The translations under genes were made by a program, and so were the position numbers. The notes under the pieces were generated by a model, which searched no databases, was not told the origin of the DNA, and saw nothing but the letters and a program-made list of their open reading frames with translations. From the NCBI GenBank assembly GCA_963844035.1, contig CAWJMT010000009.1:1-64000 (forward strand): a stretch of 64,000 nucleotides of DNA, written 5' to 3'. Shown here one piece after another: positions 1 through 16,365 of this stretch. Source of the DNA: an uncultured Gemmatimonadales bacterium (GTDB taxonomy: Bacteria > Gemmatimonadota > Gemmatimonadetes > Gemmatimonadales > GWC2-71-9). Each line of letters begins with the position of its first letter. Within the stretch, counting starts at the first letter, position 1.

Positions 1-1304
1 TAGTACAGGAAGTGCCACTGGAGGTTCCAGCTCCAACCATTGCGCCAGTTCTGGTCGAGGCGCAGCGACTGGTTGTTGCTGAAGCCGAACTCCCAGGCAA
101 AGTTCATCGCCTGGCGATAGACGAGCAGCACGTTGTAGCCCAGATCCGACGGGATCGGGTGCACCACGCCGCTGGCATCCGTGAAGTCATACGTCAAGCG
201 CTTGTTGAGGCCGGCGTTGATGCCGTAGGTACGATCGTACCACACGCGCACCGTCGAGCCGATACCGACCAGCGTGCTGCCAGCGCCGTCGTTGTAGGTC
301 TCCTTGTTCCAGGAATAGCCCGTGGCCGAGTTGAAGCTCCAGTGGCCATGGTCCAGGAACCCGAACCGAACGTCAAACAGCGTCCGGGTCGCGTCGCCCA
401 TGCTCTGCGACGTGTAGCCAGCGCCACCCTTCGACAGGGCTGCGACACCAGGCGTACCGCCCGCCGTCGGGGCCATATCGTTGCCCGCCAACATCGAGAA
501 CGTGGGCATCAACCACATACCATCGGTGTTCATCGGCAGGAAGCCGAGCACAACACCGTAGGTCATGCGCTTGTAGTCCAGGTTATCCACGCCCGGGGCG
601 ACCGCGAGCTGTACGACCACGCGATCCTTGACCCATGCCGCAACACCGGTGTGAATGAACTGGCCCTGACCGCCGGCGGGGGTACCGCTGCCGAACGCCC
701 CGAAGAACGGCGAGGTCTGGCCCTGATTGTTGATGAACACCGAGACGATGTTACCGCCCTCGCCCGGGTTCCAGCCCATACGGACGTCGAACTCATCGTT
801 CCGGACCGCGCCGAACTGATTGCCGACGCTGCCGGCCCCGGTGGTCACCGGGTTGAAGTTCGTCGAATACCACTCCGTCCAGATACCGACGTTCTCGGCG
901 ATCGGGCCGGTGTAGTCCCACGCGAGGCTCGAGAACGGATTGCTCGTCACGGGCCCTGCGGTGGGCTCCGGAAGGGTCGGATCACTGGCACCCTTCGACT
1001 GCTGGAACAGGTTGGAACGCATGTGATAGCTCAGGTAGCCCGTCACGCCCAACAGCAGGCGACGGCCGCCCAACGCGCCTTCCTGACCTGCCTCGATCTT
1101 CTCAGCCACCCACGGCGTACGATAGCCGTTCATGCGGAACTTCACCGCGGTGAACGTCAAGTCAGGCGTCGGGGTCCAGGTCACGTGACACTGGTTGCAC
1201 ACCAAACCCGTCTGCCGTACGTACGCGGGGACGCGCGCGCTTGCTACCTGCGCGACGCCAACCCCGAGCGCTGCCAACACAACTGCTCCTCTTAACCAGC
1301 GCAT
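1..1304 (-). CDS. cyc2: Cyc2-like fused monoheme cytochrome c / outer-membrane beta-barrel, copy 1 (apparently intact, ~434 aa; last base of stop codon lies just outside the window)
   Basis: Not in the ORF track; read manually. ATG at 1304 with AAGGAGG SD, then a signal peptide, VPAYVRQTGLVCNQCH...PDL...KFRMNGY (Cyc2-type PxFxRQTG-CxxCH-PxL-FxxxGY pattern) and a C-terminal beta-signal WNLQWHFLY. Confidence 0.75.
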   Translation of the reverse strand, partial: MRWLRGAVVLAALGVGVAQVASARVPAYVRQTGLVCNQCHVTWTPTPDLTFTAVKFRMNGYRTPWVAEKIEAGQEGALGGRRLLLGVTGYLSYHMRSNLFQQSKGASDPTLPEPTAGPVTSNPFSSLAWDYTGPIAENVGIWTEWYSTNFNPVTTGAGSVGNQFGAVRNDEFDVRMGWNPGEGGNIVSVFINNQGQTSPFFGAFGSGTPAGGQGQFIHTGVAAWVKDRVVVQLAVAPGVDNLDYKRMTYGVVLGFLPMNTDGMWLMPTFSMLAGNDMAPTAGGTPGVAALSKGGAGYTSQSMGDATRTLFDVRFGFLDHGHWSFNSATGYSWNKETYNDGAGSTLVGIGSTVRVWYDRTYGINAGLNKRLTYDFTDASGVVHPIPSDLGYNVLLVYRQAMNFAWEFGFSNNQSLRLDQNWRNGWSWNLQWHFLY

Positions 1305-1401
1305 CTAATCCTCCTTGCGTCAGGGAACTTCGGGAACACAAGAAAACAGCAACTGCAACTTACTTCTCCTTCTCCTGAACCACTCTTCACTATCCACTTC
1401 A

Positions 1402-1774
1402 CTACGGCTTGGGATTCTCGGCAAAGTAGGCGATCAGCGACGCAATGTCGGAAGCCCCCAATTTCATGTTCGGCATCTTGACGTTCTTGTTTTCGGCCAA
1501 GATCGCATCCGCGGTCGAGTCGTTTCCGAACATCGCGGTGGGATCCTTGAGCCAGCGCTGCAACCACTCGTTGCTTCGACGTTGCGTAACGCCGCCCAGG
1601 TCCGGGCCCGCCATCTTGCTGGCGGGCTTATTGACTGCGTGGCAAGCACCGCAGCCCTTATTGGCGAAAACGGTCTTGCCCTTCTTCGCATCCTGCGCCT
1701 GAGCGACCGAGGCACTCAATCCGAGAGCCGCTACGACGACCGCGCAAAGCCCGAGCTTTGGAAATACGAATCAT
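1402..1774 (-). CDS. Periplasmic class I monoheme cytochrome c (frameshift in signal peptide)
   Basis: CGACH, GPDL and a distal MPNM motif. Removing one base near 1760 joins ATG 1774 (MIRISKLGLCAVVVAALGL...) to ORF 1402..1719. Confidence 0.85.
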
Positions 1775-2247
1775 GGAGTCGACACCCTTGAAGAGTATGT
1801 TAGGACGTCAAACCGTAACGGGAAACACCGTCCTCAAACTACCCCGTACTCCATAGAATAGCACTAGCCCCGGGCTCAACGCTCGTAGGGCTGCGAGGGT
1901 ACAGTGTCGGTCCCGCAGAACCACTTGTCAATCACCCGTTTGGGCGGGCAAGGACACCGTCTCCATGCCTGCGTCGACCGGGAGATCATAAGCGATTGCT
2001 GGGTAATGATTTAACCACAAGAACCGGGGGTCGGACGAAATGCTTCACTCACCGGTCAAGGATCACCGTGTTGGTGGTCATCCTGGCTTGCGGCTGACCA
2101 CGCCCTCATGCGTCAGGCGTGGCTTCGCATCATCACGCACGGCGAAAGATGCGCAGCAAAGAGCGCATGTCAAGCACTCGTTTCAATTGAATTTCGAATT
2201 TCGCAGCGCTTGCCCGCGTCATTGGGCGCGCGTAGCTTGCGCACCCC

Positions 2248-2978
2248 TTGAGCAGCTCAATGGCAACACCCGCGGTCCGTGTGGTTGGCCTTGCCAAGCG
2301 GTACGGGCACAACTGGGCGCTGCGCGGGCTCGACCTGACAGTGGCGCCTGGCGATGCGGTCGCGCTGCTCGGGCCGAACGGATCGGGCAAGAGCACGCTG
2401 TTTCGGATCCTCGTGACGGCCGCCCGTCCGACGTTCGGCGACGTGCAGGTGTGCGGCGTGCCGATCACCGACGGCGACGCAGTGCGCCGCCACGTCAGCA
2501 TTCTCTCGGATCGCCCTCCCGTTTACAGCGAATTGACGGCCCTCGAGAATCTCAAGTTTGCCGCAGCGATGTACGGGCTGGAATCCTCAGAGAGCGAGCT
2601 GCGAGATGCGCTCGCCGCTGTTGGACTTGCTCGAGCGGCCGATGCCCGGGTCGGCACGTTCTCCCAGGGAATGGGACAGCGTCTCTCGCTGGCGCGGGCA
2701 ACGTTGCAGAACCCCGACCTGATACTGCTCGACGAGCCGTACAACGCCCTCGATGCGGAGGGGCTGCGGCTCGTGGACCAGCTGCTCGCCAGAGTGCGCG
2801 CGGCGGGGAAGACCGCGATCCTGGCCACCCATCATATCGCGAAGGGCCTGGCGTTGTGCGACCGGGTGATCGCGCTGCAAGACGGGCGCGTGGCGTTCGA
2901 TGGGCCGACCGCGGCGTTTTGCCGCGTCGCCACTGGCGCAGGAAGCGGGGGCGTGGGCATGACGCCCTGGCGGCGTGA
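2248..2978 (+). CDS. ccmA: Heme exporter ATP-binding protein CcmA (3' end uncertain, probable frameshift)
   Basis: Walker A GPNGSGKST, FSQGM signature, LLDEP; lies directly upstream of ccmB. Confidence 0.85.
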
Positions 2979-3674
2979 GCTGGCGGCGTGCCTTGGCGGT
3001 CGCGCGCAAGGACCTGTTGATCGAGCGGCGGGCCAAGGCGGCGTTCAATTCGATGGCGTTCTTCGCCGGGATGGTATTGCTCACGTTCGGCTTCGCCCTC
3101 GGCCCCGACGTGCCCGCGGGCGCGGCGCGCGAGGGGACGCTGTTGCAGCAGCTCGCGCCGGGACTCCTCTGGGTGACGATCTTGTTCGCCGGCGTCCTGG
3201 CCCTCGATCGCTCCTTTCAGGTGGAGACTGGAGCGCGGCGGCCTCGACGCCCTGCGGCTCTATCCGGGTGACCGCAAGGCCATCTACCTCGGCAAGTTGA
3301 TCGCCAACGTGACGATCATGTTGATCATGGAGGCGCTGGTCTGCCCCTTCGCCGGCGATCCTCTACAGTCTGGACCTCTGGGGCAAGCTGCCGGGCCTCG
3401 CAGGCGTCGCCATTCTCACCACGATCGGGTTCGCCACCATGGGCACGTTCTACGCGGCCCTCACGGCGAATCTGCGGGCGCGCCAGGTGCTGTTGCCCCT
3501 CCTCATGTTCCCGGTGCTCATTCCGGTGATTCTGGCCGCAGTGAAAGCCACGGGCTGGTCCTGCACGGTGACCCGATGGGCGAGATCGGGTCGTGGGTCA
3601 AGCTCCTGGGCGCCGTAGACATCCTGTTCTTCACCACCTGCCTGCTCGTGTTCGAGTACGTGCTCGAAGAATAG
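2975..3674 (+). CDS. ccmB: Heme exporter permease CcmB (several frameshifts)
   Basis: ARKDLLIERR start, PGLLWV, IYLGK and LLPLLMFPVLIPV segments are spread over ORFs 2975..3271 and 3297..3674. Confidence 0.8.
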
Positions 3675-3707
3675 GGAACGCAGCAGGAGATGGGGAACCA
3701 GAGAACA

Positions 3708-3741
3708 CGAAGCGCACTGGGAAGGAGACCAGTGCGCTTCG
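3708..3741 (-). terminator. Hairpin terminator downstream of cyc2 copy 2 (also faces ccmB)
   Basis: 13-bp inverted repeat CGAAGCGCACTGG/CCAGTGCGCTTCG, followed by TGTTCTC on the minus strand. Confidence 0.65.
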
Positions 3742-3829
3742 GCTTATGCTCCCGGGAGTTCCCTGACGAAGCCCCGGTTCCTACACCTGCACTAGTGCCA
3801 ACGTCACACCAGACCTGCGTGGAGCGGGA

Positions 3830-5135
3830 CTAGTACAGGAAGTGCCACTGCAGGTTCCAGCTCCAACCATTGCGCCAGTTCTGGTCGAGGCGCAGCGACT
3901 GGTTGTTGCTGAAGCCGAACTCCCAGGCAAAGTTCATCGCCTGGCGATAGACGAGCAGCACGTTGTAGCCCAGATCCGACGGGATCGGGTGCACCACGCC
4001 GCTGGCGTCCGTGAAGTCATAACTCAAGCGCTTGTTGAATCCGATGTTCGCCCCGTAGGTGCGATCGTACCACAGGCGCACCGTCGTGGCGATACCCGTC
4101 AACGTGCTGCCAGCGCCGTCGTTGTAGGTCTCCTTGTTCCAGGAATAGCCCGTGGCCGAGTTGAAGCTCCAGTGGCCATGGTCCAGGAACCCGAACCGAA
4201 CGTCAAACAGCGTCCGGGTCGCGTCGCCCATGCTCTGCGACGTGTAGCCTGCGCCGCCCTTGGACAGCGCTGCGACGCCCGGCGTACCGCCCGCCGTCGG
4301 GGCCATGTCGTTCCCCACCAACGCCGAGAACGTGGGCATCAGCCACATACCGTCGCTGTTCATCGGCATGACGGCGAGCACCACACCGTAGTTCATCCGC
4401 TTGTAGTCGAGGTTATCCACGCCCGGGCCGACCGAGAGCTGCACGGCCGCGCGATCCTTCACCCATGCCGCGAGACCGGTGTGGATGAACTGGCCCTGAG
4501 CGCCGGAGGGAACGCCGCTACCGAACGCCCCGAAGAACGGCGCGCTCTGGCCCTGATTGTTGATGAACACCGAGACGATGTTACCGCCCGTGCCCGGGTT
4601 CCACCCCATGCGGACGTCGAACTCATCGTTCCGGACGGCGCCGAACTGATTGCCGACGCTGCCGGCCCCGGTGGTCACCGGGTTGAAGTTCGTCGAATAC
4701 CACTCCGTCCAGATACCGACGTTCTCGGCGATCGGGCCGGCGTAGTCCCACGCGAGGCTCGAGAACGGATTGCTCGTCACCGGACCAGCGTCGGGCTCCG
4801 CCAAGCGTCGGATCACTCGCACCCTTCGACTGCTGGAACAGGTTGGAGCGCATGTGATAGCTCAGGTAGCCCGTCACGCCCAACAGCAGCCGACGGCCGC
4901 CCAGCGCGCCTTCCTGGCCTGCCTCGATCTTCTCAGCCACCCACGGCGTGCGATAGCCGTTCAGCCGGAACTTGGTCCCGGTGAACGTCAGATCCGGGTT
5001 AGGGGTCCAGGTCACGTGACACTGGTTGCACACCAAACCCGTCTGCCGGACGAACGCAGGAACGCGCGCGCTTGCGATCTGCGCCACGCACACGCCGAGC
5101 ACCGCCAACACGACTGCTCCTCTTAACCAGCGCAT
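3830..5135 (-). CDS. cyc2: Cyc2-like cytochrome-porin, copy 2 (+1 frameshift near 4800)
   Basis: ORFs 4623..5204 (VPAFVRQTGLVCNQCH...TGTKFRLNGY) and 3830..4822 (barrel, ends WHFLY). Span is 1306 nt, one base longer than copy 1. Confidence 0.75.
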
Positions 5136-5434
5136 CGCTACCTCCTTCTGCGCAGCTAAGGGAACTAGGGAACAGCCCACCTCACTGCGTCCTCTCCCTC
5201 CCAACGACCGGACAACTGCCTGAGGAAGGGGAGGAGCCCTTCCTGCACCACCGACCTTCGGTGCTGAAGAGCGGGGCTACAGTCGAACGCCGCGATCCCT
5301 TAGCGTGGGAGGCGACGGTCGACTCCACCCCACTACTGTTGCTACGCGCAACGTCGGGGGAACATTACCGGAAGTGTTGCAGCGTGGAACGGTCTCATAG
5401 TGAGGCGGATCGGCGCAGATCGTTCCCGAAAACA

Positions 5435-5468
5435 CGAAGCGCCTTGGGGCCTAACCCAAGGCGCTTCG
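5435..5468 (-). terminator. Hairpin terminator downstream of cyc2 copy 3
   Basis: 13-bp inverted repeat CGAAGCGCCTTGG/CCAAGGCGCTTCG, followed by TGTTTT on the minus strand. Confidence 0.65.
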
Positions 5469-5556
5469 GCTCATGCTCCCGGGAGTTCCCTGACGAAGCC
5501 CCGGTTCCTACACCTGCGCTAGTGCCAACGTCACACCAGACCTGCGTGGAGCGGGA

Positions 5557-6862
5557 CTAGTACAGGAAGTGCCACTGCAGGTTCCAGCTCCAACCATTGC
5601 GCCAGTTCTGGTCGAGGCGCAGCGACTGGTTGTTGCTGAAGCCGAACTCCCAGGCAAAGTTCATCGCCTGGCGGTAGACGAGCAGCACGTTGTAGCCCAG
5701 ATCCGACGGGATCGGGTGCACCACGCCGCTGGCGTCCGTGAAGTCATACTTCAAGCGCTTGTTGAGGCCGGCGTTGATGCCGTAGGTACGATCGTACCAC
5801 ACGCGCACCGTCGATGCCGATACCGACCAGCGTGCTGCCAGCGCCGTCGTTGTAGGTCTCCTTGTTCCAGGAATAGCCCGTGGCCGAGTTGAAGCTCCAG
5901 TGGCCATGGTCCAGGAACCCGAACCGAACGTCAAACAGCGTCCGGGTCGCGTCGCCCATGCTCTGCGACGTGTAGCCAGCGCCGCCCTTGGACAGCGCCG
6001 CAACGCCAGGCGTACCGCCCGCCGTCGGGGCCATGTCGTTACCCACCAACACCGAGAACGTGGGCATCAGCCACATACCATCGGTGTTCATCGGCAGGAA
6101 GCCGAGCACAACACCGTAGTTCATCCGCTTGTAGTCCAGGTTGTCCACGCCCGGGGCGACCGCGAGCTGTACGACCACGCGATCCTTGACCCATGCCGCA
6201 ATACCGGTGTGGATGAACTGGCCCTGACCGCCGGCGGGTGCGCCGCTACCGAACGCCCCGAAGAACGGCGAGGTCTGGCCCTGATTGTTGATGAACACCG
6301 AGACGATGTTACCGCCCTCGCCCGGGTTCCAACCCATGCGGACGTCGAACTCATCGTTCCGGACGGCGCCGAACTGATTGCCGACGCTGCCGGCCCCGGT
6401 GGTCACCGGGTTGAAGTTCGTCGAATACCACTCCGTCCAGATGCCGACGTTCTCGGCGATCGGGCCGGTGTAGTCCCACGCAAGGCTGGAGAACGGATTG
6501 CTCGTCACGGGACCCGCGGTGGGCTCCGGAAGCGTCGGATCACTCGCACCCTTCGACTGCTGGAACAGGTTGGAGCGCATGTGATAGCTCAGGTAGCCCG
6601 TCACGCCCAACAGCAGGCGACGGCCGCCCAACGCGCCTTCCTGACCTGCCTCGATCTTCTCAGCCACCCACGGCGTGCGATAGCCGTTCATGCGGAACTT
6701 CACCGCGGTGAACGTCAAGTCAGGCGTCGGGGTCCAGGTCACGTGACACTGGTTGCACACCAAACCCGTCTGCCGCACGAACGCAGGAACGCGCGCGCTT
6801 GCTACCTGCGCGACGCCCACGCCGAGCGCTGCCAACACAACTGCTCCTTTTAACCAGCGCAT
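5557..6862 (-). CDS. cyc2: Cyc2-like cytochrome-porin, copy 3 (+1 frameshift near 5815)
   Basis: ORFs 5744..6862 and 5557..6003; nearly identical to copy 1, with one extra base in the GIGSTVRV region. Confidence 0.75.
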
Positions 6863-7353
6863 CTAATCCTCCTTACGGCTACAGGGAACTGAAGGGACAG
6901 CCTACCTCACTCCTTCTGTTCTTCTGCTTCTTCTGACTCTCCCGAACAGCGAACAACTGTGGTGCGGAGAGCAGACCCTTTGCCGCGTGAGCGGCCACCG
7001 GTGATATCACGAAGGCGTACCGCAGACGACCGCACCCCACGACGTGGGACGCGATCGTCGGCTTCCCCCACTACTTGAGCTACGCGCAGGCTCGGTGAGA
7101 AATTCAAATGGCGTTTCAGAATGAAAGGTGCAACATGGAACGGTGAATTAGGGGCTCACCGAGGGTTCGCTAACGGGGAAGGCGCGCTTGGCGGTGGTTC
7201 TGCGACGGTGGTTGGTAGCGGCTGCTGGGCGTTGCTTTCTTCGGCCGCGCGACGCTCGGCCAGCTCACATGACAAAACACAAGCGCACCGTGGGACTCCC
7301 CACGGTGCGCTTGTTGTTATTTCAAGAAACGACTAACGACGCCAAACCAAGCG

Positions 7354-7761
7354 TCACGGAGCGCGGAACTGACCCATGTAGGCGATGAGCGACTCGATCT
7401 CGCCCGGGGCCAACCGCAGGTTCGGCATCTTGACGTACTTGTACTGGACCAACATCGCGTCCGCGATGTCGTCGGACCCAAACATTGCCATCGGGTCCTT
7501 CAGCCACTGCTTAAGCCACTCGTGGGTGCGGCGGTCAGTGACACCGGCCAGATCCGGGCCTTCAGCCGTGCGCTCTTCCTTCCTGCCGATGGTATGGCAG
7601 AAATTGCAGCCGCGGTTGACGAAGACCTTCCTGCCCTGCTCCGCCTGCGCCGGATCGACACGCGAGTTAGCCTGCGCGAGACTCTGACGCGCGCCGAGGG
7701 TCAGTGCGAACATGGCCACGGCACCGCCACACAGTACCAAACGCGAGATAGGTTTGAACAT
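7354..7761 (-). CDS. Periplasmic class I monoheme cytochrome c, paralog of 1402..1774
   Basis: Signal peptide, CNFCH, GPDLAGVT, WLKDP, VKMPNL. Confidence 0.85.
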   Translation of the reverse strand: MFKPISRLVLCGGAVAMFALTLGARQSLAQANSRVDPAQAEQGRKVFVNRGCNFCHTIGRKEERTAEGPDLAGVTDRRTHEWLKQWLKDPMAMFGSDDIADAMLVQYKYVKMPNLRLAPGEIESLIAYMGQFRAP

Positions 7762-8063
7762 GGAAGTAGGTTTCAATTTGAAGGACGCTTTCATGGGGCC
7801 ACATACCCCCTCAGAGAATGTGGAACGGCCAACACAGCCAACAACGCCATGCAAACATACGCGGTCGGGCACAGAGTGCTAGACCCCGATCGCCCATATG
7901 CTACCCCCTAGACCCCCTCCCGGCAACCTTGCCCGGCCGGCTTGGGGGTCCGTTGAAGGAGTGTCTCGCGGGGGTTAAGTTGCTGGGGGCCTCAGATCTA
8001 CAAGGTTCTTGACCAGCTACGCCCTGGCGCGGGACCGCCGACCGGGGACGGAAAGGTATTGAC

Positions 8064-8759
8064 GTGAGCACGAAATGGCTGGGCTTTGAACCCCTGGGGC
8101 GGCTCGCAGGCATCCTGGCCATCCCGATCCTCGCCGTGGGGCTGTACCTGGGCCTCGTGTGGGCGCCGACGGACGCGATGATGGGAGACGTCCAGCGGGT
8201 GATGTACGTCCACTTCCCCAGCTGGATCGCGACCGCGCTCGCGTACACGACGGCCTTCGTCTGCAGCGTGCTCTACCTCGCCCGCCGGAGGGAGACCCTG
8301 GACCACGTGGCCCAGGCAGGCGTCGAGGTAGGCGTCCTTTTCAACACGACCGGCCTGATTACCGGCTCGATCTGGGGCCGTCCGACGTGGGGGGTCTGGT
8401 GGACCTGGGACCCGCGCCTGACCACCACCGCAATCATGCTTATCATCTTTGTGGGGTATCTCCTGGTGCGGGCGTTCCTGGACGACCCGGATGCTCGTGC
8501 CCGGGTGGGTGCCCTGGTGGCAATCATGGGGTTCATCACGCTCCCGATCGTGTATTACTCGGTGCAATGGTGGCGGACTCTCCACCAGCCACAGTCGAGT
8601 CCGAACACGGTGGATTCGCGGATGGTCGTCGCGCTGCGCGTCATGATGATCGCATTCACGCTCGTCACCATCTATCTCATGTCGCGACGCGCCGAGGTCG
8701 CCCGGCTGGAGGCGGCCGCGGAGCGGTCGCTGCTCGAGCCCGGAGTGAGCGATGGATAA
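8064..8759 (+). CDS. ccmC: Heme exporter / cytochrome c biogenesis protein CcmC
   Basis: WWD motif WGRPTWGVWWTWDPRL, YVH and LHQ histidines. Confidence 0.93.
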   Translation: MSTKWLGFEPLGRLAGILAIPILAVGLYLGLVWAPTDAMMGDVQRVMYVHFPSWIATALAYTTAFVCSVLYLARRRETLDHVAQAGVEVGVLFNTTGLITGSIWGRPTWGVWWTWDPRLTTTAIMLIIFVGYLLVRAFLDDPDARARVGALVAIMGFITLPIVYYSVQWWRTLHQPQSSPNTVDSRMVVALRVMMIAFTLVTIYLMSRRAEVARLEAAAERSLLEPGVSDG

Positions 8760-8895
8760 CGGGGGATTCGTCTTGGCCGCGTACATCGTTACCGCGGTCC
8801 TGGTCGGTGGGTACACCTGGCGGCTGACACGGCGCCTCGGCCACGCACGGATGGCCGCGAACGGTAAGCCACGGGGGCTTGGGGGCAAACTATGA
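8752..8895 (+). CDS. ccmD: CcmD-like small membrane protein (47 aa)
   Basis: Manual read MDNGGFVLAAYIVTAVLVGGYTWRLTRR...; one TM helix plus a basic tail; overlaps both ccmC and ccmE. Confidence 0.7.
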   Translation: MDNGGFVLAAYIVTAVLVGGYTWRLTRRLGHARMAANGKPRGLGGKL

Positions 8896-9347
8896 AATGG
8901 AACGGGCGTAAGACAACCGTCGCCATCGGCAGCGGCGTGGTCTTGTTGACGTTCGCATACCTGGTCTGGGGCGGTATCGGCAACAACCTCGTCTACTTCC
9001 TGACGCCGACCGAGCTCCTCGCGAAGGGCTCCGCGGTGTATGGGACGAGCGTCAGACTCGGCGGCATCGTGGAAGCCGGCAGCATTCGCTGGGACGCGGA
9101 CAAGCGAGAGCTGCGGTTCCGCCTCGAGGACGACAATGCCCACACGGTCGAGGTCGTGAGCACGGGTGTCCCGCCGCAGATGTTCAACGGCGGCATCGGG
9201 GCGGTGGTCGAAGGAGTCTGGTCGCCTGACGGCGTCTTCCGGTGCCACAACCTGATGGTCAAGCACTCGAACGAGTACAAGGCGCCCATGCCCGGCGACA
9301 AGCCTCCCGCGTACTACCGCGAGCTGTTCCGGAAGCAGCAGTCATGA
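8892..9347 (+). CDS. ccmE: Heme chaperone CcmE
   Basis: YFLTP, VRLGG and the heme-binding KHSNEY (HxxxY) motif. Confidence 0.93.
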   Translation: MKWNGRKTTVAIGSGVVLLTFAYLVWGGIGNNLVYFLTPTELLAKGSAVYGTSVRLGGIVEAGSIRWDADKRELRFRLEDDNAHTVEVVSTGVPPQMFNGGIGAVVEGVWSPDGVFRCHNLMVKHSNEYKAPMPGDKPPAYYRELFRKQQS

Positions 9348-11377
9348 ACGGCGTAGTCGGGCATGCAGCAACCCTGAGCGCCCTGGCGCTCTCGGTCTTC
9401 GGGGTGGTCGTTGCATTCGTTGGTGGGCGGCGGCGCGACGCCCGGTATGTCATCGCCGCCCAGCGGGCCGGGGTGGGCGTCTTTGCCCTCGTTGTGCTGG
9501 CATTCGTGATGATGGAGCGGGCGCTGATCACGCATGACTTCAGCGTCAGTTACGTCGCCCAGGTGGGCAGCCGGGCCACACCACTCTTCTACACGATCAT
9601 TTCGGCGTGGAGCGCACTCGAGGGTTCCATCCTTTTGTGGGCGCTCATCCTCGCGACATACACGGCGCTGCTGGCGCTCTGGACCCGACGTCAAGGCGAC
9701 CCCCGCGCCGGCGTCGATCCGCAGCTGCCCTATGCTCTGGGAACCCTGTTTTTCGTCAATATCTTCTTCCTCCTCCTCATCTCGTGGCCTGCGAATCCGT
9801 TCCGCGCCATGAGCCCGATTCCACCGGACGGCCCGGGGCCGAACGCACTGCTGCAGAACAGCCCCTTCATGGGCGTTCATCCCCCGCTCCTCTATATCGG
9901 ATACGTGGGCATGTCGGTGCCGTTCGCGCTGGCGACGGGCGCGCTGCTCGCTGGCCGCCTGAATCCCGATTGGCCGAAGGTGATCCGGCGCTGGACGATG
10001 ATACCGTGGACCTTCTTGTCGCTTGGCATCGTGGCCGGCGCCTGGTGGTCGTACGAGGTCCTCGGATGGGGCGGGTACTGGGCCTGGGACCCGGTCGAGA
10101 ACGCCTCCTTCATGCCGTGGCTCACCGCCACGGCGTTTTTGCACTCGGTGATGGTGCAAGAACGGCGGGGAATGCTGAAGACATGGACGATCACGCTGAT
10201 CGTGTCCACGTTCCTCCTGACGGTGCTGGGCACGTTCCTCACGCGCAGCGGAGTACTCGCCAGCGTGCATGCCTTCACGCAGAGCCCGATCGGCCCGTTC
10301 TTCCTGACCTTCCTCGGGATCGTGCTGCTGGCCTCACTGACGTTGCTGGCGTGGCGCAGTGAGGCGTTGAGCAGCGAGGGACGGTTCGATGCCGCGCTGT
10401 CGCGCGAGTCGGCGTTCATGATCAACAACCTGCTGTTCGCCGGCTTCACGTTCGTCGTGCTGCTCGGCACGATGTTCCCCCTGATCGCTGAAGCCGCGCG
10501 GGGAGTCAAGGTCAGCGTCGGCGGCCCGTACTTCAACCAGATGAGCGTGCCGATCGCCCTGATGCTCATTTTCCTGGCGGGCGTGGGACCGGCCCTCCCC
10601 TGGCGCAAAGGCTCGCTCGAGCTGTTGCGGGGCAAGTTCCGCTGGCCGACGATCGCCGCCCTGGCAGCGGGCGTGGTGCTCGCCGTCGCGGGCGTGCGTG
10701 CCCCGCTCGCCTGGCTGGCGTTCGTGCTTGCGGTGTTCTCGACGGGGCTCTTGGCCGTGGAATTCCTCGGCCCGGCGCGCGCCCGCCGCTCGACCACCGG
10801 CGAGTCGTGGCCGCTGGCGCTGTGGCGGGTGTGCGCGAGCAATCGCCGCCGCTACGGCGGGTACGTCGTGCACGGGGGCATCCTGGTGCTCGCGGTTGGA
10901 GTCGCTTCGTCCGCGACGTTCCGGAAAGAGCAGGAGTGGAATCTGGAGCGGGGCCATACCGAGGCGTTCGGACGCTACCAGATCCGCTTGGACTCGGTCT
11001 GGGCCGTCCATGAATCGAACCGGGACGGAGTGATCGCGGCCACCACGGTAACAGTGGGTGGCAAGGTCCTGACCCGTCTATCTCCCCGTCTCAACTACTA
11101 CAAATCGGCCATGGAGCCGATCGGCACGCCGGCGGTGCGGGAGAGTCTGCGGGAGGACATCTACCTCGTGCTGATGGCGTACACCGCCGACGGGTCGCAC
11201 GCCACGATCAAGGCGATCGCGAGTCCGCTCGTGGCGTGGATTTGGCTTGGGGGGGGCATCGTGGGGCTGGGAGCACTGTTCGCTCTTTGGCCTGGCGGGG
11301 CTGGAGCGACGCGCCGCGACCCGATTCCAGAGCCGGGTCGCGCCCGGGCCCGTCCCGTAAGTGAGGCGAGGGTATGA
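9344..11377 (+). CDS. ccmF: Cytochrome c heme lyase CcmF
   Basis: HPPLLY, WGGYWAWDPVEN, TRSG..SVHAF. Confidence 0.95.
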   Translation: MNGVVGHAATLSALALSVFGVVVAFVGGRRRDARYVIAAQRAGVGVFALVVLAFVMMERALITHDFSVSYVAQVGSRATPLFYTIISAWSALEGSILLWALILATYTALLALWTRRQGDPRAGVDPQLPYALGTLFFVNIFFLLLISWPANPFRAMSPIPPDGPGPNALLQNSPFMGVHPPLLYIGYVGMSVPFALATGALLAGRLNPDWPKVIRRWTMIPWTFLSLGIVAGAWWSYEVLGWGGYWAWDPVENASFMPWLTATAFLHSVMVQERRGMLKTWTITLIVSTFLLTVLGTFLTRSGVLASVHAFTQSPIGPFFLTFLGIVLLASLTLLAWRSEALSSEGRFDAALSRESAFMINNLLFAGFTFVVLLGTMFPLIAEAARGVKVSVGGPYFNQMSVPIALMLIFLAGVGPALPWRKGSLELLRGKFRWPTIAALAAGVVLAVAGVRAPLAWLAFVLAVFSTGLLAVEFLGPARARRSTTGESWPLALWRVCASNRRRYGGYVVHGGILVLAVGVASSATFRKEQEWNLERGHTEAFGRYQIRLDSVWAVHESNRDGVIAATTVTVGGKVLTRLSPRLNYYKSAMEPIGTPAVRESLREDIYLVLMAYTADGSHATIKAIASPLVAWIWLGGGIVGLGALFALWPGGAGATRRDPIPEPGRARARPVSEARV

Positions 11378-12003
11378 AATGGAAGCAGTGGGCGATTCCG
11401 GCTAGCGGTGTACCGGTCGTCGCCTTCCTTGCCTGGGGACTCACCCAGGACCCTCATACGATTCCCTCTCCCCTGCCCGGCAAGCCCGCACCGGAGTTTG
11501 CACTCGAGACACTCAACGGTGACTCGCTGCGGTCGGATGCCCTCAAGGGGCACGTCGTACTGGTGAACTTCTGGGCGTCATGGTGCCTCGCCTGCCGTGC
11601 CGAGCATCCCGTCCTGGTGGAAGCGGCCAAGCGCTACCACGACCAGGGGCTGCGGGTGGTGGGGGTGGTGTATGAAGACTCGCGCGACAACGCCCGGGCC
11701 TGGATCGCCGAACGGGGTGGGGATTGGCCCAACGTGCTCGACGTGGGGAGTCACACAGCGATTGCGTATGGGTTGTTCGGGGTGCCGGAGACTTTCTTCG
11801 TTGGTCGCGATGGCCGCATCCTCTACAAGCAGATTGGTCCGCTGGACAAGGAAGTGATCGACCAGTGGGTGCCCAAGCTCCTCGCGGCCGGGGCTGAGGC
11901 CGCGGCTGCGCCGGCTGACACCTTTGCCGAGGGCCGGAGTGCAGGGCACGTGCGGGCTTCCCCTGAGTTCCCGACGGCGCGCGGGACCGCGCGCCCCAAG
12001 TAG
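11374..12003 (+). CDS. ccmG: Thiol-disulfide oxidoreductase CcmG/DsbE
   Basis: NFWASWCLAC, GVPETF. Confidence 0.9.
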   Translation: MKWKQWAIPASGVPVVAFLAWGLTQDPHTIPSPLPGKPAPEFALETLNGDSLRSDALKGHVVLVNFWASWCLACRAEHPVLVEAAKRYHDQGLRVVGVVYEDSRDNARAWIAERGGDWPNVLDVGSHTAIAYGLFGVPETFFVGRDGRILYKQIGPLDKEVIDQWVPKLLAAGAEAAAAPADTFAEGRSAGHVRASPEFPTARGTARPK

Positions 12004-12005
12004 CC

Positions 12006-13322
12006 ATGCGGTTCCAATCGCCCATCATCGCCGTGCTGACGTGGTGGCTCGCCGCAGCCGCCCCGCTCGCGGCGCAGGCGCGGCCCGATTCCGTGGTGAT
12101 CCCCAAGGACGCCGCGTTCGAAGCGAAGGTACGGGACGTGGCATTGTCGTTGCGATGCCCGGTGTGCCAAAACAATTCCATCGAAGAGTCCCCGCGGTCC
12201 TCGCGCAGGACATGAAGCGGGAAGTCCGGCAGCGCCTCGCCGCGGGTGAGTCGCCGGACGAGATCCGCCGCTACTTCGTCTCGCGCTACGGTGAATGGGT
12301 GCTCACCAAGCCTCGCGCCGCGGGCGTCAACCTTTCGGTCTGGCTGCTACCGGTGGTCGCGCTGTTTGCGGGCGCTCTCGTGGTCTGGAGCGCCGTACGC
12401 CGTTGGGTACGGCAGGGCGACGCCGCACGCGTTCAGGCCGCGGTCCCGGCGGCGCCGTCCGTCACGGAGCCCGTGGCCGCGCTCGATGCGGGCGAACTCC
12501 GCGCCCGCAAGGCGACGCTCCAGGCATCGCTCCAGGAGCTCGCCTCGGAGTTCGAGGCCGGGCGGCTCGACGCCCGCGACCTGGCGATCCTCAAGGAGCG
12601 TGACGAAGCCGAGCTGGCCAAAGTGGTGGAGTCTCTGAAGCGGCTGAAGAAAGAGACCGCGGATGCCGGCAAGACCCGCGCCGAGGCCCGCCCCGCAACG
12701 GCGGGGCCCGGCGGAGTCTGGCTCGCGACGGCTCGGCTGGAGCGTCGGGCTCGCGGGGTTCGCGCTGATCCTGGTGCTGACGCTACGGGGCTCGGTCGCG
12801 GCCCGACCCGAGGGAGCGGTGATCACCGGGTCGCAGGTGGCCAGCGTGGCGCCGGTCGACATGGAGCTTCAGAAGATTGGTCCCCTCGACTCGCTGCGCA
12901 TCGCGCAGCTGGAGGCGAAGGTCGCCGGGGATTCGACGAACGTACCGGCGCTGATCGAGCTGGGGCACCTCTATCTCGCGCAGGGATTGATCGAGAAAGC
13001 GACATTGGTGGATACGCTTGCGATCCGGTTGCAGCCGGATGCGCCGAGCAGCGCCGAGGCATTCGCGCACCTCGGCATGATTCTGTGGGGCACGGGCGAG
13101 ACCGAGGGCGCGCTTCAGTCGCTCGACAAGGCAGTGTTCCTGCGTCCGGAGCTGCCCGAAGCATTGCTGTACCGCGGGATCATTTTGTTTCAGGGGATGC
13201 AAGACATGGCGGCCGCCGCCGACGCATTCGATCACTACCTCGCTGTGGCGCCACCGGATGCCAACACCGGACGCATACGGGCCCTGCGCGATGCCGCACG
13301 GCAGGCAGCCACCGGGAGCTAG
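12006..13322 (+). CDS. ccmH: CcmH fused to or followed by a CcmI-like TPR region (frameshifts near 12195 and 12700)
   Basis: LRCPVCQN, YFVSRYGEWVL.KP; downstream TM segment and TPR-like helices in ORF 12663..13322. Confidence 0.8.
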
Positions 13323-13421: not shown

Positions 13422-13874
13422 TCAGCATACCCGTCCGTTCCGCAGCCCCTCCAGGCCTTCGGCAGTCCTGGATCGGGTCTCCATTGTGGTCGAGTCCACA
13501 GTTTCTTCGTGTCCATTCGGCCCGGCGTCAGAAATGAGCCCAAAGTAGAGCCCAGCAACCGTGGCGACTCCCAGCGTGGTAAGCAGGATCGCCGTCCTGG
13601 TGCCATCGTGGACCTTCGCTTCGACGCTGCTGATCTCGCCGAGCGGAATCTTGACGCGTGCCCCGTCGAGCACACCTCGCAACGTGTCCCGCCTGACCTC
13701 GGGCTCGCCGACCGAAACGACGGTGTTGTTCTTGTAGGTCACCAACACGAAGGGGGGAGCGTTGTCTTGGAGGTAGGAAACGGGCTCGATGCGCCGAACC
13801 GACTTGCAGGAGGCCACGGCCGCGACTTCCAGGACAGCGCCGACCATCGCGATACGACGGTTGCGCACCATCAT
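13422..13874 (-). CDS. Tandem-array lipoprotein-like paralog A
   Basis: VASC lipobox-like site, PPFVLVTY..VGEPEVRRDTLRG..KIPL core, C-terminal hydrophobic helix; CGLDHNGDPIQDC in an adjacent frame. Confidence 0.65.
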   Translation of the reverse strand: MMVRNRRIAMVGAVLEVAAVASCKSVRRIEPVSYLQDNAPPFVLVTYKNNTVVSVGEPEVRRDTLRGVLDGARVKIPLGEISSVEAKVHDGTRTAILLTTLGVATVAGLYFGLISDAGPNGHEETVDSTTMETRSRTAEGLEGLRNGRVC

Positions 13875-13932
13875 CAGGCGTCCCTCGGAGATCGTGGGAG
13901 CATGCTTGACCATACAGTGGCACGGACAAGAT

Positions 13933-13966
13933 AAGGCGGGCGTAGTCACTCCGCTACGCCCGCCTT
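13933..13966 (-). terminator. Hairpin after array gene B
   Basis: AAGGCGGGCGTAG/CTACGCCCGCCTT inverted repeat. Confidence 0.55.
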
Positions 13967-14008
13967 TGACTCACCCGACGCCCGCTGGTGCGATTGGCAG
14001 GCCGAGCT

Positions 14009-14435
14009 TCACTCGGGGTCTAGCGGACAACAGTAGCCGGTCGGGGTGCCCTTTCACGACCGGACAACCAGTGAAGTTCGGGTCCCCGCCGTTACCAGCC
14101 GTCGAGATGGTGTACGCCACGCCCACGGTGGCCGCGGTCAGCACGGTCGCCAGCAGAATGGTCCTCTTCGGCGACGGCATCTTGGCCTGGACGGTCTGGA
14201 TCTCCGTCAGATGAAATCGCGACCGGCTCCGCGAGCCCCTGCCACGTGCCCAGCAGGCTGTCCCCGACGATCTTCGGGTCCGGACGACGGGAACGAATGA
14301 GTTGTCGGTGTAGGTGACCCACACGATGGGCGGGTTGTGCTCCGGGATGTACACGGTGGGCTGCACCGGCTTGACCACGTGACAGCCGGCGACGGCGACG
14401 ACCAGCCCAGCCAATGCGACGCTGTTCAGTTTCAT
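14009..14435 (-). CDS. Tandem-array lipoprotein-like paralog B (frameshifted)
   Basis: MKLNSVALAGLVVAVAGC lipobox; PPIVWVTYTDNSFVPV; tail GCPVVKG.PTGYCCPLDPE. Confidence 0.65.
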
Positions 14436-14689
14436 AACCTCGTGTCCTCTCGAGGGGTGTAGATTTGCAGACTCTACGTTCGCAGCTTGAAGCGTCCCTG
14501 GGGAATTGTCAAGGGTCGGCGGGTCGTCCCAAGGCAAATCGTTGCATTTAGCAAGACGGGTGTGGCACCCACAGGACTGGGGGTTCGCTTCGAAGCTAGA
14601 TAACGGAAGCACGAAGGTGGCGTAGCGATCACCGTTACGCCACCTTCCACAACCTGCTCGGCCGTGTGCCGTCAACAGCTTCGTGTTTC

Positions 14690-15107
14690 TCTCCGGGGTC
14701 AAGCGGACAACAGTAGCCGGTCGGTGTGCCCTTCGTAGCGACGACGGTGAAGTTCGGGTCCCCCGCTCCCAGCCGTCGAGATCTGTATAGGCCACGCCGA
14801 CGGCCGCCGGTTACGACGGTGGCCAGTAGCACGGTCCGCTTCGGGACGGCATCTTGGCCTGGACGGTCTTGATATCCGATCAGAGAATCGCGACGGGTTC
14901 CGCGAGCCCCTGCCACGTGCCCATCAGGCTGTCGCCGACGATCTTCGGCTCGGACACGGGAACGAATGAGTTGTCGGTGTACGTCACCCACACGACGGGT
15001 GGGTTCTGCTCCGGGATGAACACGGTGGGCTGAACGATTCCTGACCACGTGACAGCCGGCGACGGCGACGACCAAGCCCAGCGCACGGCGACGCTGTTCA
15101 GCTTCAT
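14690..15107 (-). CDS. Tandem-array lipoprotein-like paralog C (frameshifted, 3' end approximate)
   Basis: MKLNSV..VAVAGCHVV, PPVVWVTYTDNSFVPVSEPKIVGDSL, tail KGTPTGYCCPLDP. Confidence 0.6.
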
Positions 15108-15339
15108 AGACTGCCATCCTCTCGAGGGGTGTACCTCTACACGGTTGCTACGTGTCAGGCTCGAAGCCTCCCGTAGGGAATTTGTTCAGGAGCCGATACA
15201 GAACCGTTCCAACGAGCAAGTACGGGACGGCACGGCCATGAGGACAAGAAAGAAAGGCGGGCGTGGTCACCGCTTCACCACGCCCGCACCTTCTGTCGGA
15301 CCCGGCGGTCGCTGAACGGAACGCGCCGGCGGGGTTCTC

Positions 15340-15780
15340 TTACGCCGCTCGACGGCGCTCGGATCCACTGCGGACAATGCCGGAGTCGGCGTACCCTTCA
15401 CGACGCGGACAGCCGGAGAAGTTCGGGTCCCCGCCGTTGCCGGCCGTCGAAATGGTGTAGGCAACGCCTACGGTGGCCGCGGTCAACACGGTGGCCAGCA
15501 GAATGGTCCGCTTCGGCGACGGCATCTTGGCCTGGACGGTCTTGATCTCGCTCAGGTGAAATGGCGACCGGCTCCGCGAGCCCCGACCACGTGCCCATCA
15601 AGCTGTCCCCGACGATCTTCGGCTCTGACACTGGAACGAAGGAGTTGTCGGTGTAGGTCACCCACACGACGGGTGGGTTATGCTCGGGGATGATACACGC
15701 GTGGGCTGAACCGGCTTGACCACGTGACAGCCGGCGACGGCGACAACCAACCCCGCCAACACGACGTTGTTCAGTTTCAT
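15340..15780 (-). CDS. Tandem-array lipoprotein-like paralog D (frameshifted)
   Basis: MKLNNVVLAGLVVAVAGCHVVKPV; core as in B and C (ORFs 15398..15667 and 15340..15525). Confidence 0.6.
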
Positions 15781-15957
15781 AACCTGTCCTCTCGAGGGGT
15801 GTGCTCTACAGTCTACGTGTACCTTGAGGCGTCCGTTGGGAATTGCAAGGGGGGCCGTTTCAATCTAGCAGGAGGGTTGCTTGATTGTACCCGCCAGACG
15901 CCGATTGGGTTCGGTGCCGTCGCTACAGGCATCCCCAACCGCTAGGACGAGCTGCAG

Positions 15958-16365
15958 CTAGCAATACATGGAGGGGAAACCCCCGCACGTCGTACCCGCA
16001 GGTCGTACCTGGGTTCGAGCCAGCCTTCGAAATGGAGCCAAAATAGAGCGCCGACACGCGCCGCCACTCCCAGCGAGCCGACCAAGAGGGCCGTCTTGGT
16101 GTGGTCCTTGACCTTCGCCTCTACGCTCTGGATCTCGGACCAGAGGAATCCTCACCGGAGATCCCTGCACCGTTCCCCGCAACGTGTCCCGTCGGACCTC
16201 GGCTTCGGCGACCGCAACGACGATGGTGTCGCGATAGGTCACCCATACCAATCGAGGGGCGTGATCTTCGAGGTACGTCGTCGGGTAGATGGGCCGTACC
16301 GACGTACAGCGCGCCGACGCCAACAAGTCCGCAGCACAGACCGACAAGGCGACCCGGTCGAGCAT
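15958..16365 (-). CDS. Tandem-array lipoprotein-like paralog E (frameshifted, start uncertain)
   Basis: CTSVRPIYPTTYLEDHAPRLVWVTY..EVRRDTLRG; tail CGYDVRG...MYC. Confidence 0.6.
   Translation of the reverse strand: MLDRVALSVCAADLLASARCTSVRPIYPTTYLEDHAPRLVWVTYRDTIVVAVAEAEVRRDTLRGTVQGSPVRIPLVRDPERRGEGQGPHQDGPLGRLAGSGGACRRSILAPFRRLARTQVRPAGTTCGGFPSMYC

Follow-up and report, generated by a model that had tools for sequence, protein, structure and literature searches.

A candidate trans-acting antisense element in the 3' untranslated regions of cyc2-like cytochrome-porin genes of a Gemmatimonadales bacterium

The stretch analysed here (the window) comprises 64,000 nucleotides (nt) at the start of contig CAWJMT010000009.1 (C9) of an uncultured Gemmatimonadales soil bacterium (GCA_963844035.1), whose genome assembly is 3.47 Mb and 84% complete. 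It carries three near-identical cyc2-like cytochrome-porin genes, and the leader of copy 1 is complementary to an element that copies 2 and 3 carry in their 3' untranslated regions (UTRs). The question raised by the locus is whether the two sequences close a single mRNA as a stem or whether an RNA from one gene acts on another. Our analysis indicated that the complementarity is real and appears to point to regulation in trans rather than to a closing stem, in partial support of an initial annotation that had offered both. The element is conserved within one clade and is, on balance, best read as a trans antisense between near-identical paralogues.

Pairing of the copy 1 leader with the trailers of copies 2 and 3

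All five sequence motifs on which the initial annotation relied were recovered where it had placed them. The target site lies on the minus strand at 1314–1339, from -35 to -10 of copy 1, and reaches the first 3 nt of the Shine-Dalgarno sequence (SD, 1310–1316). The element is located in the 3' UTR (~130 nt) of copies 2 and 3, just before their terminator, which it shares. In copy 2 it occupies 3746–3777 (minus strand), with a pairing stretch at 3746–3771 and its own hairpin at 3752–3777, the loop of which carries the seed CGUCA; in copy 3 (5473–5504, minus strand) the core is identical. The terminator-like hairpins lie at 3708–3741 and 5435–5468, both on the minus strand. The annotated match of 12 consecutive Watson-Crick pairs between leader 1 and the element was confirmed (1318–1329), and the further stretch, given as about seven bases, proved to be nine pairs (1331–1339) after a 1 × 2 loop. 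Three additional pairs extend into the SD (1314–1316) past a one-base bulge, for ~24 base pairs (bp) in all, two of them G-U in the whole duplex. The motifs had been assigned to the 5' UTRs of all three genes; the motifs stood, but the supposed 5' UTR of copy 1 is a spacer behind a cytochrome c gene. Leader 2 retains an 8-nt remnant of the target motif (5159–5166, minus strand) and leader 3 a 9-nt remnant (6882–6890, minus strand), and their binding to the window element is weak (-9.2 and -11.0 kcal/mol, respectively, against -21.5 kcal/mol for leader 1).

Across the genome, the 12-mer occurs at three places, the two trailers and leader 1. Among 9492 candidate starts preceded by an SD, the copy 1 site provides the sole 12-nt run (two of the 9492 rows, both the same site). 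By raw duplex energy this site took fifth place, against 1239th of the 9492 for leader 3; once the 400 best duplexes were corrected for accessibility, it came first (-20.7 kcal/mol, the next being -19.6 kcal/mol). The motif is not a common genome-wide repeat, an outcome that the annotation had named as one that would speak against it, since the 8-mer AGTTCCCT occurs at only 30 places genome-wide. Searches of window positions 1–9000 with Rfam covariance models gave no matches up to an E-value of 5.

The 3' UTR of copy 1, which is missing from the window, was located using a 95%-identical related locus (L053) as a bridge. It was placed at the start of contig C25 (86% identity over 380 nt), and the presumed C9–C25 join leaves one base between the two contig ends. 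The copy 1 trailer on C25 reaches its terminator within ~75 nt and lacks the element; L053, a single contig, likewise shows a copy-1-type trailer without the element. The partners of the strong match are thus on different mRNAs, and not on the same mRNA as in 5'-3' UTR pairing in cis, and the match within the mRNAs of copies 2 and 3 is weak (8–9 nt). In whole-mRNA folds of copies 2 and 3, leader-trailer pairs had a probability of at most 0.02, long-range prediction being weak. RNase III, which reportedly cuts the icaR duplex, was found in none of seven genomes of the genus, four of them at least 90% complete, and a second model was also negative in the bacterium's own genome; the proposed RNase III-type processing is therefore not supported. 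Because copy 1 lacks the element, the cis pair probability is low and RNase III was not found, the long-range stem suggested to close the ~1.4-kb mRNA is not supported either. The remaining suggestion, that an RNA derived from the 3' UTR cross-regulates the paralogues, gained support, with the strong match on copy 1 and the element on copies 2 and 3. Two features of trans-acting small RNAs (sRNAs) derived from 3' UTRs are present, namely a 3'-UTR location with a shared terminator and a conserved match, in antisense, to another gene's initiation region.

Predicted repression of copy 1 and candidate host factors

From the sequence, pairing in trans with an effect of either sign appears likely, and with rather better than even confidence we propose that the 3' UTR of copies 2 and 3 yields an antisense RNA that represses copy 1 translation in trans without a chaperone. 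The stand-alone copies (2 and 3) would encode this RNA against the initiation region of copy 1. The hairpin loop would present a 5-nt seed to the UGA(CG) of the target leader; from this first contact the pairing would spread to its full length over -35 to -10, beside and into the SD. The duplex would block 30S loading and probably expose the copy 1 mRNA to decay, so that transcription of a stand-alone copy would turn copy 1 down. With little of the match left in their own leaders, the carriers would for the most part be spared, and the length of the match would make a chaperone unnecessary. RNase E/G is a candidate for release of the short RNA; the whole mRNA could act instead. The analysis establishes the sequences and where they lie, their specificity within the genome, their conservation, the matching letter changes and the retention of the element without its ORF; in vivo pairing, release of a short RNA and a repressive effect are inferred from these.

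Pairing raised the predicted opening cost of -20 to +10 from 9–15 to 21–27 kcal/mol in five of five strong targets and barely altered it in leaders 2 and 3. In the second of three clades of related loci described below, the SD itself lies wholly within the duplex; in the other two, pairing frees the core GGAGG and blocks the bases just upstream. On these models repression is the more likely sign, and its main rival is the same pairing with the opposite effect, in which the RNA would activate copy 1, either by melting a leader fold in which the SD is masked or by shielding the mRNA from decay. When leader 1 is folded with 60 nt of context, a U-rich stretch upstream pairs with its SD, and binding lowers the cost of opening the SD from 5.6 to 0.4 kcal/mol in the window, from 6.6 to 0.4 kcal/mol in L053 and from 5.7 to 0.8 kcal/mol in L064; copy-1-type RNA contigs are also common. 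However, the effect is smaller with 100 nt of context, the helix covers -20 to -10 in all cases and the second-clade duplex covers the SD itself (L116 and the first element of L059), and we regard activation as unlikely.

Neither Hfq nor ProQ was found in any of the seven genomes of the genus, four of them at least 90% complete, in searches that detected their controls, although such a negative does not prove absence. RNase E/G was present in five of the seven and was not found in the bacterium's own incomplete genome, in which the RNase Y N-terminal model and CsrA also went without a match. No sigma-70-like promoter was found on the minus strand. A conserved trailer word, UGCAGGA, is explained by its predicted pairing with the last codons of the gene. 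Sigma-54 and CRP-like readings of the conserved trailer words were dropped by eye, as the spacing varies, and a CsrA-like reading was dropped because CsrA was not found in the genome.

The locus stretch was present in part in 17 RNA runs. RNA contigs bridged the cytochrome c gene and the copy 1 start in two of three RNA runs, both stopping at 1914, and in the third a contig covered 1761–2101; one RNA contig ended at 5470, just past the element. RNA depth does not allow the copies to be ranked, and the contigs offer weak hints of transcription only.

Element, target and seed letters in related loci

A metagenome scan confirmed 219 stretches, and the counts for related loci rest on the best 80, equal to 75 loci. 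Of 19 trailers belonging to homologues with at least 74% identity, 14 carried the element. Its pattern matched one of 39 more distant trailers, past the terminator and at 33 bits compared with at least 90, and this match was considered false. An RNA model of the element, built from 16 of these trailers (which it matches by construction), was run on 100 of the sources. The five close trailers without the element (L051, L053, L055, L057 and L064) belong to genes with target-type leaders. The best binding to any tested element was -8 to -15 kcal/mol in all ten leaders of carriers with both ends known; among element-free genes with a full leader, four of five bound at -19 to -31 kcal/mol and the fifth, L055, at -13 kcal/mol. 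Element and target were on the same contig in six cases (the window, L053, L059, L116, L064 and L070), with 21–27 Watson-Crick pairs in the best duplex and 0–7 G-U pairs. Leaders with an 11-nt match followed a cytochrome c gene in 19 of 26 cases and leaders without such a match in 3 of 8, and in related Gemmatimonadales loci the best-matching leader was again on the cytochrome-c-linked copy without the element.

Beyond the close homologues, no antisense of at least 11 nt to the leader was found in 54 of 54 more distant loci, many of them short, and none above background in genome G009. Close loci were few in the genome collections, which held one partial locus and a homologue in 20 of 401 family genomes, of which only G002 was close, with its copies split at contig ends. 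In the genus, the RNA model recovered no full element from the six remaining genomes, the highest score being 36 bits. A protein scan of viral contigs gave no homologue; in these contigs two matches to the element pattern inside a phage open reading frame (ORF) and two to the C-terminal pattern opposite a phage gene were judged to be chance.

A tree of 36 coding sequences, built from rows of at least 450 nt and so without L116, grouped the copies by lineage and not by position, which indicates that copies are homogenised within genomes. The target and loop letters of the three supported clades are UGACG/CGUCA, UGAGA/UCUCA and UGAGU/ACUCA. After UGA, the target reads CG in the window, L053, L067 and others, GA in L059, L089, L061 and L063, and GU in L064, L070 and L071; L116, outside the tree, was put in the GA clade by its sequence. 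These two variable positions pair within each clade and not across clades, and the seed paired in 11 of 12 first-clade leaders (the twelfth being mis-anchored), in three of three second-clade leaders and in L064. The variable letters are located in the hairpin loop. All 17 element cores fold alone into the hairpin, the stem register of which shifts between clades in the alignment.

In L064 and L070, near-identical strains counted as one event, all that is left of a lost copy ahead of the element and terminator is the codons QWHFLY-stop. The remnant follows the terminator of another gene, and the matching target lies 0.9 kb further on. It is with these last codons that the trailer UGCAGGA is predicted to pair. 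Retention of the element behind this six-codon stub would fit an RNA working in trans, and the stand-alone form may be taken as indirect support for a discrete short RNA.

Several observations weigh against repression in trans by such an RNA. Assembled contigs of the RNA runs revealed no discrete RNA, no RNA ends and no regulation. In the window clade, the fold of the whole trailer partly hides the seed (unpaired probability of 0.02–0.34 at four of five positions), and pairing frees the core GGAGG, with an unpaired probability rising from 0.22–0.51 to 0.78. The L113 leader, compared with elements of other members of its clade in place of its own, mismatches them at one position of the seed. 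The letter changes in loop and target support co-evolution and do not prove it, because with three clades label shuffling matches one time in six, so that taken by itself the covariation lacks significance. Carriers and targets separate less well when a simple cut-off of 11 nt is applied (match with element, 4; match without, 5; no match with element, 6; neither, 0; p = 0.044, the rows not being independent), because some elements carry an added anti-SD stretch, and the L061 trailer matches its own SD over 12 nt. Finally, the leader motif AGT[AT]C was found in 30 of 43 leaders at 40–73% identity; it is, by this distribution, older than the element, and its conservation therefore also needs another cause.

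The L061 trailer and the 8–9-nt matches of leaders 2 and 3 would suit pairing of leader and trailer in cis, or carrier mRNAs that regulate themselves, of the icaR/hbs type, with the copy 1 match a by-product of shared ancestry. This explanation is quite unlikely: carriers' own leaders bind their own trailers at +0.6 to -12 kcal/mol only, the element survives without its gene in L064 and L070, and the low pair probability in whole-mRNA folds and the failure to find RNase III in the seven genomes also speak against it. To a similar degree improbable is a trailer hairpin that is a stabilising or protein-binding structure derived from an inverted leader copy, with the leader motif a site for some protein and the complementarity a relic. 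The leader motif is conserved in distant element-free homologues, often near-palindromic there, and the element holds a 10-nt palindrome and a hairpin 5' arm resembling the leader; yet the co-varying letters are loop positions, free of hairpin constraint, and a relic should decay over ~20% protein divergence. The RNA or DNA binder would here be a so far unnamed protein, since CsrA was not found in the genome. An origin of the element by inverted duplication of the leader is plausible, because the leader motif predates the element and the hairpin 5' arm resembles the leader. Very unlikely, lastly, are inverted repeats acting at the DNA level, whether an inversion of the DNA from a trailer to leader 1 (cytochrome c gene, promoter, ccmAB) that switches copy 1 on and off or inverted gene conversion that keeps the sites alike: homogenisation of the copies implies active recombination at the locus and the few G-U pairs do not separate RNA from DNA pairing, but the orientation is the same in six of six loci with ccmAB beside a carrier (the window, L053, L054, L059, L067 and L116) and also in L064 and L070, no strand-changing joint was seen in four runs (contigs only), and the genome's three tyrosine recombinases are on other contigs, serine recombinases not having been searched.

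Among the distant homologues, the L073–L110 group shows a near-palindromic or hairpin word around GGAGUAC, 13–35 nt before the start codon, and no trailer element; the word is a possible protein site. Two elements, at L059:226–390 and L061:3653–3816, contain an insertion of pyrimidines with an 11–12-nt match to the SD region in other copies of the carrier type, the matched leaders being at L059:1675, L101:4001 and L061:2369 and 4031. The overlap of L101 and L061 is identical at 127 of 127 bases, so that at least three carrier-side copies belong to one genome. The inserted stretch could possibly provide a second tier of cross-regulation, or self-regulation. An HTH_18 (AraC-type) gene, encoding ~340 amino acids (aa) and below the Pfam cut-off, lies at L059:448–1494, L061:1155–2180, L063:1282–2292 and L067:2269–3306, ahead of some of the carriers in related loci; no such gene lies between the window's copies.

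The cytochrome-porin genes and known systems

On the minus strand a monoheme cytochrome c gene (7279–7872) with its own terminator (7279–7314) lies upstream of the array, followed by the element carriers copy 3 (5557–6862; one frameshift near 5815) and copy 2 (3830–5135; one frameshift near 4805–4817). Convergent with copy 2, on the plus strand, are a ccmA-like ABC ATPase gene and its neighbour, which we take from its sequence type to be ccmB-like (2248–3674, frameshifted in the window). A second monoheme cytochrome c gene (1402 to ~1774, minus strand), with a one-base frameshift near 1756 relative to its relatives, lies directly upstream of the presumed target gene, copy 1 (1–1304, minus strand). 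Copy 1 is intact with 434 aa, the final base of its stop codon falling past the contig end. The single frameshifts of copies 2 and 3 are probably sequencing errors, since near relatives are intact; that near 5815 is not in a relative's RNA contig. One-base frameshifts relative to related sequences were seen at window positions 1756, ~2960–3670, ~4810, 5815 and 7353, which suggests that the assembly contains read errors.

The copy 1 protein has a single N-terminal CXXCH motif (CNQCH, residues 36–40), invariant in 54 sequences, and a signal peptide, assigned by visual inspection and by the presence of an N-terminal helix. A structure model (predicted local distance difference test score, pLDDT, 75) showed a C-terminal porin beta-barrel, with PorB, Omp38, OprP and OprO as the best fold matches. 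The family consensus is VPSFVRQT, compared with AXPXFAR[QK][TY] in Cyc2, and PDL stands six residues past the heme motif, where Cyc2 has PXL after the heme site. The label 'cyc2-like' holds by the CXXCH, the signal peptide, a length above 365 aa and the porin barrel, with V for A in the motif as the one deviation, and the window copies are predicted to be Cyc2-like cytochrome-porins. Pfam and PDB sequence searches gave the porin copy no name.

The window copies are 91–98% identical to each other. A fourth, distant paralogue (44% identity) at 3257–4585 of contig C5 of the same genome (G000) has neither an SD-like leader match nor the element and is followed by an apparent tRNA gene, identified by eye. 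A cytochrome c maturation cluster (8064–13322) adjoins the array on the opposite strand; it includes an assembly protein by Pfam and, presumably, ccmE, ccmF, ccmG and ccmH. A tandem array of short, similar putative lipoprotein genes lies at 13422–16365, with counterparts at L064:382–1282 and L070:175–2388; no Pfam family was found for the one array gene searched.

The known system closest in anatomy is s-SodF of Streptomyces coelicolor, a ~90-nt 3'-UTR RNA with two stem-loops and the seed in the first loop, which matches a functionally redundant gene near-perfectly over 16–19 nt as far as the ribosome-binding site (RBS), without Hfq; one species keeps the match despite a large deletion of the coding region (PMC3919588). 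The window element shares with it a 3'-UTR location, a predicted hairpin with a loop seed, a match at the RBS and a genus in which Hfq was not found in seven genomes. In contrast, sodF and sodN encode different enzymes, whereas the regulator and target genes here are 94–97% identical paralogues kept alike by homogenisation, the target is an internal cistron, and there is no sequence relation (PMC3919588). FlaX of Vibrio cholerae, from the flaA 3' UTR, represses flaB translation at the RBS and stand-by sites and alters the make-up of a surface structure, and thus also has a paralogue as target; it shares no sequence with the element, requires ProQ and uses three separate sites, unlike the one ~24-bp helix predicted here in a genus in which ProQ was not found in seven genomes and the carriers are extra copies (PMC11879080). 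OppZ, CarZ and MalH also come from 3' ends and have an internal cistron or porin mRNAs as targets, but OppZ is Hfq-dependent and self-regulating, and MalH has unrelated porins as targets (PMC9438474). In icaR and hbs the 3' UTR is complementary to the initiation region within one gene's mRNA, whereas the best target here lacks the element (PMC3868564, PMC5737220). Like described Cyc2 cytochrome-porins, the window copies have a signal peptide, one N-terminal CXXCH and a C-terminal beta-barrel; they differ in the motif, VPxFVRQT for PXFARQT, and Fe(II) oxidation is putative (10.1101/228056). Tandem cyc2 paralogues also occur in Sideroxydans ES-1, but these are 37–50% identical, with different responses (PMC8788666). 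No published description of such an element was found in the literature on Cyc2, Gemmatimonad or UTR-derived sRNAs, most subscription papers lying outside this search.

An RNA-only circuit of paralogue selection can be put forward only tentatively, and we consider it doubtful as a whole. In this circuit an inverted copy of the ancestral leader would have become a 3'-UTR hairpin antisense RNA of duplicated genes, and changes in the loop seed would rank up to five near-identical outer-membrane cytochrome-porins so that the cell shows mainly one variant. Through the extra anti-SD stretch, some trailers of one clade have an 11-nt match to copies of a second class (L059, L061 and L101). The circuit, if true, would have two tiers in one clade and a free-standing RNA gene in another, and would need no Hfq, ProQ or RNase III.

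Iron oxidation is commonly traced through Cyc2-like transcripts, and multiple copies are present in many organisms. If the trans antisense reading is true, protein from the main copy need not follow its mRNA level, and the copies would be wired together. The loci would form a natural series for the birth of an sRNA from its target and its departure from the parent gene, with three natural seed variants. The pair would also be a rare predicted sRNA and target from the Gemmatimonadota, and from a genus of which seven genomes yielded no Hfq, ProQ or RNase III.

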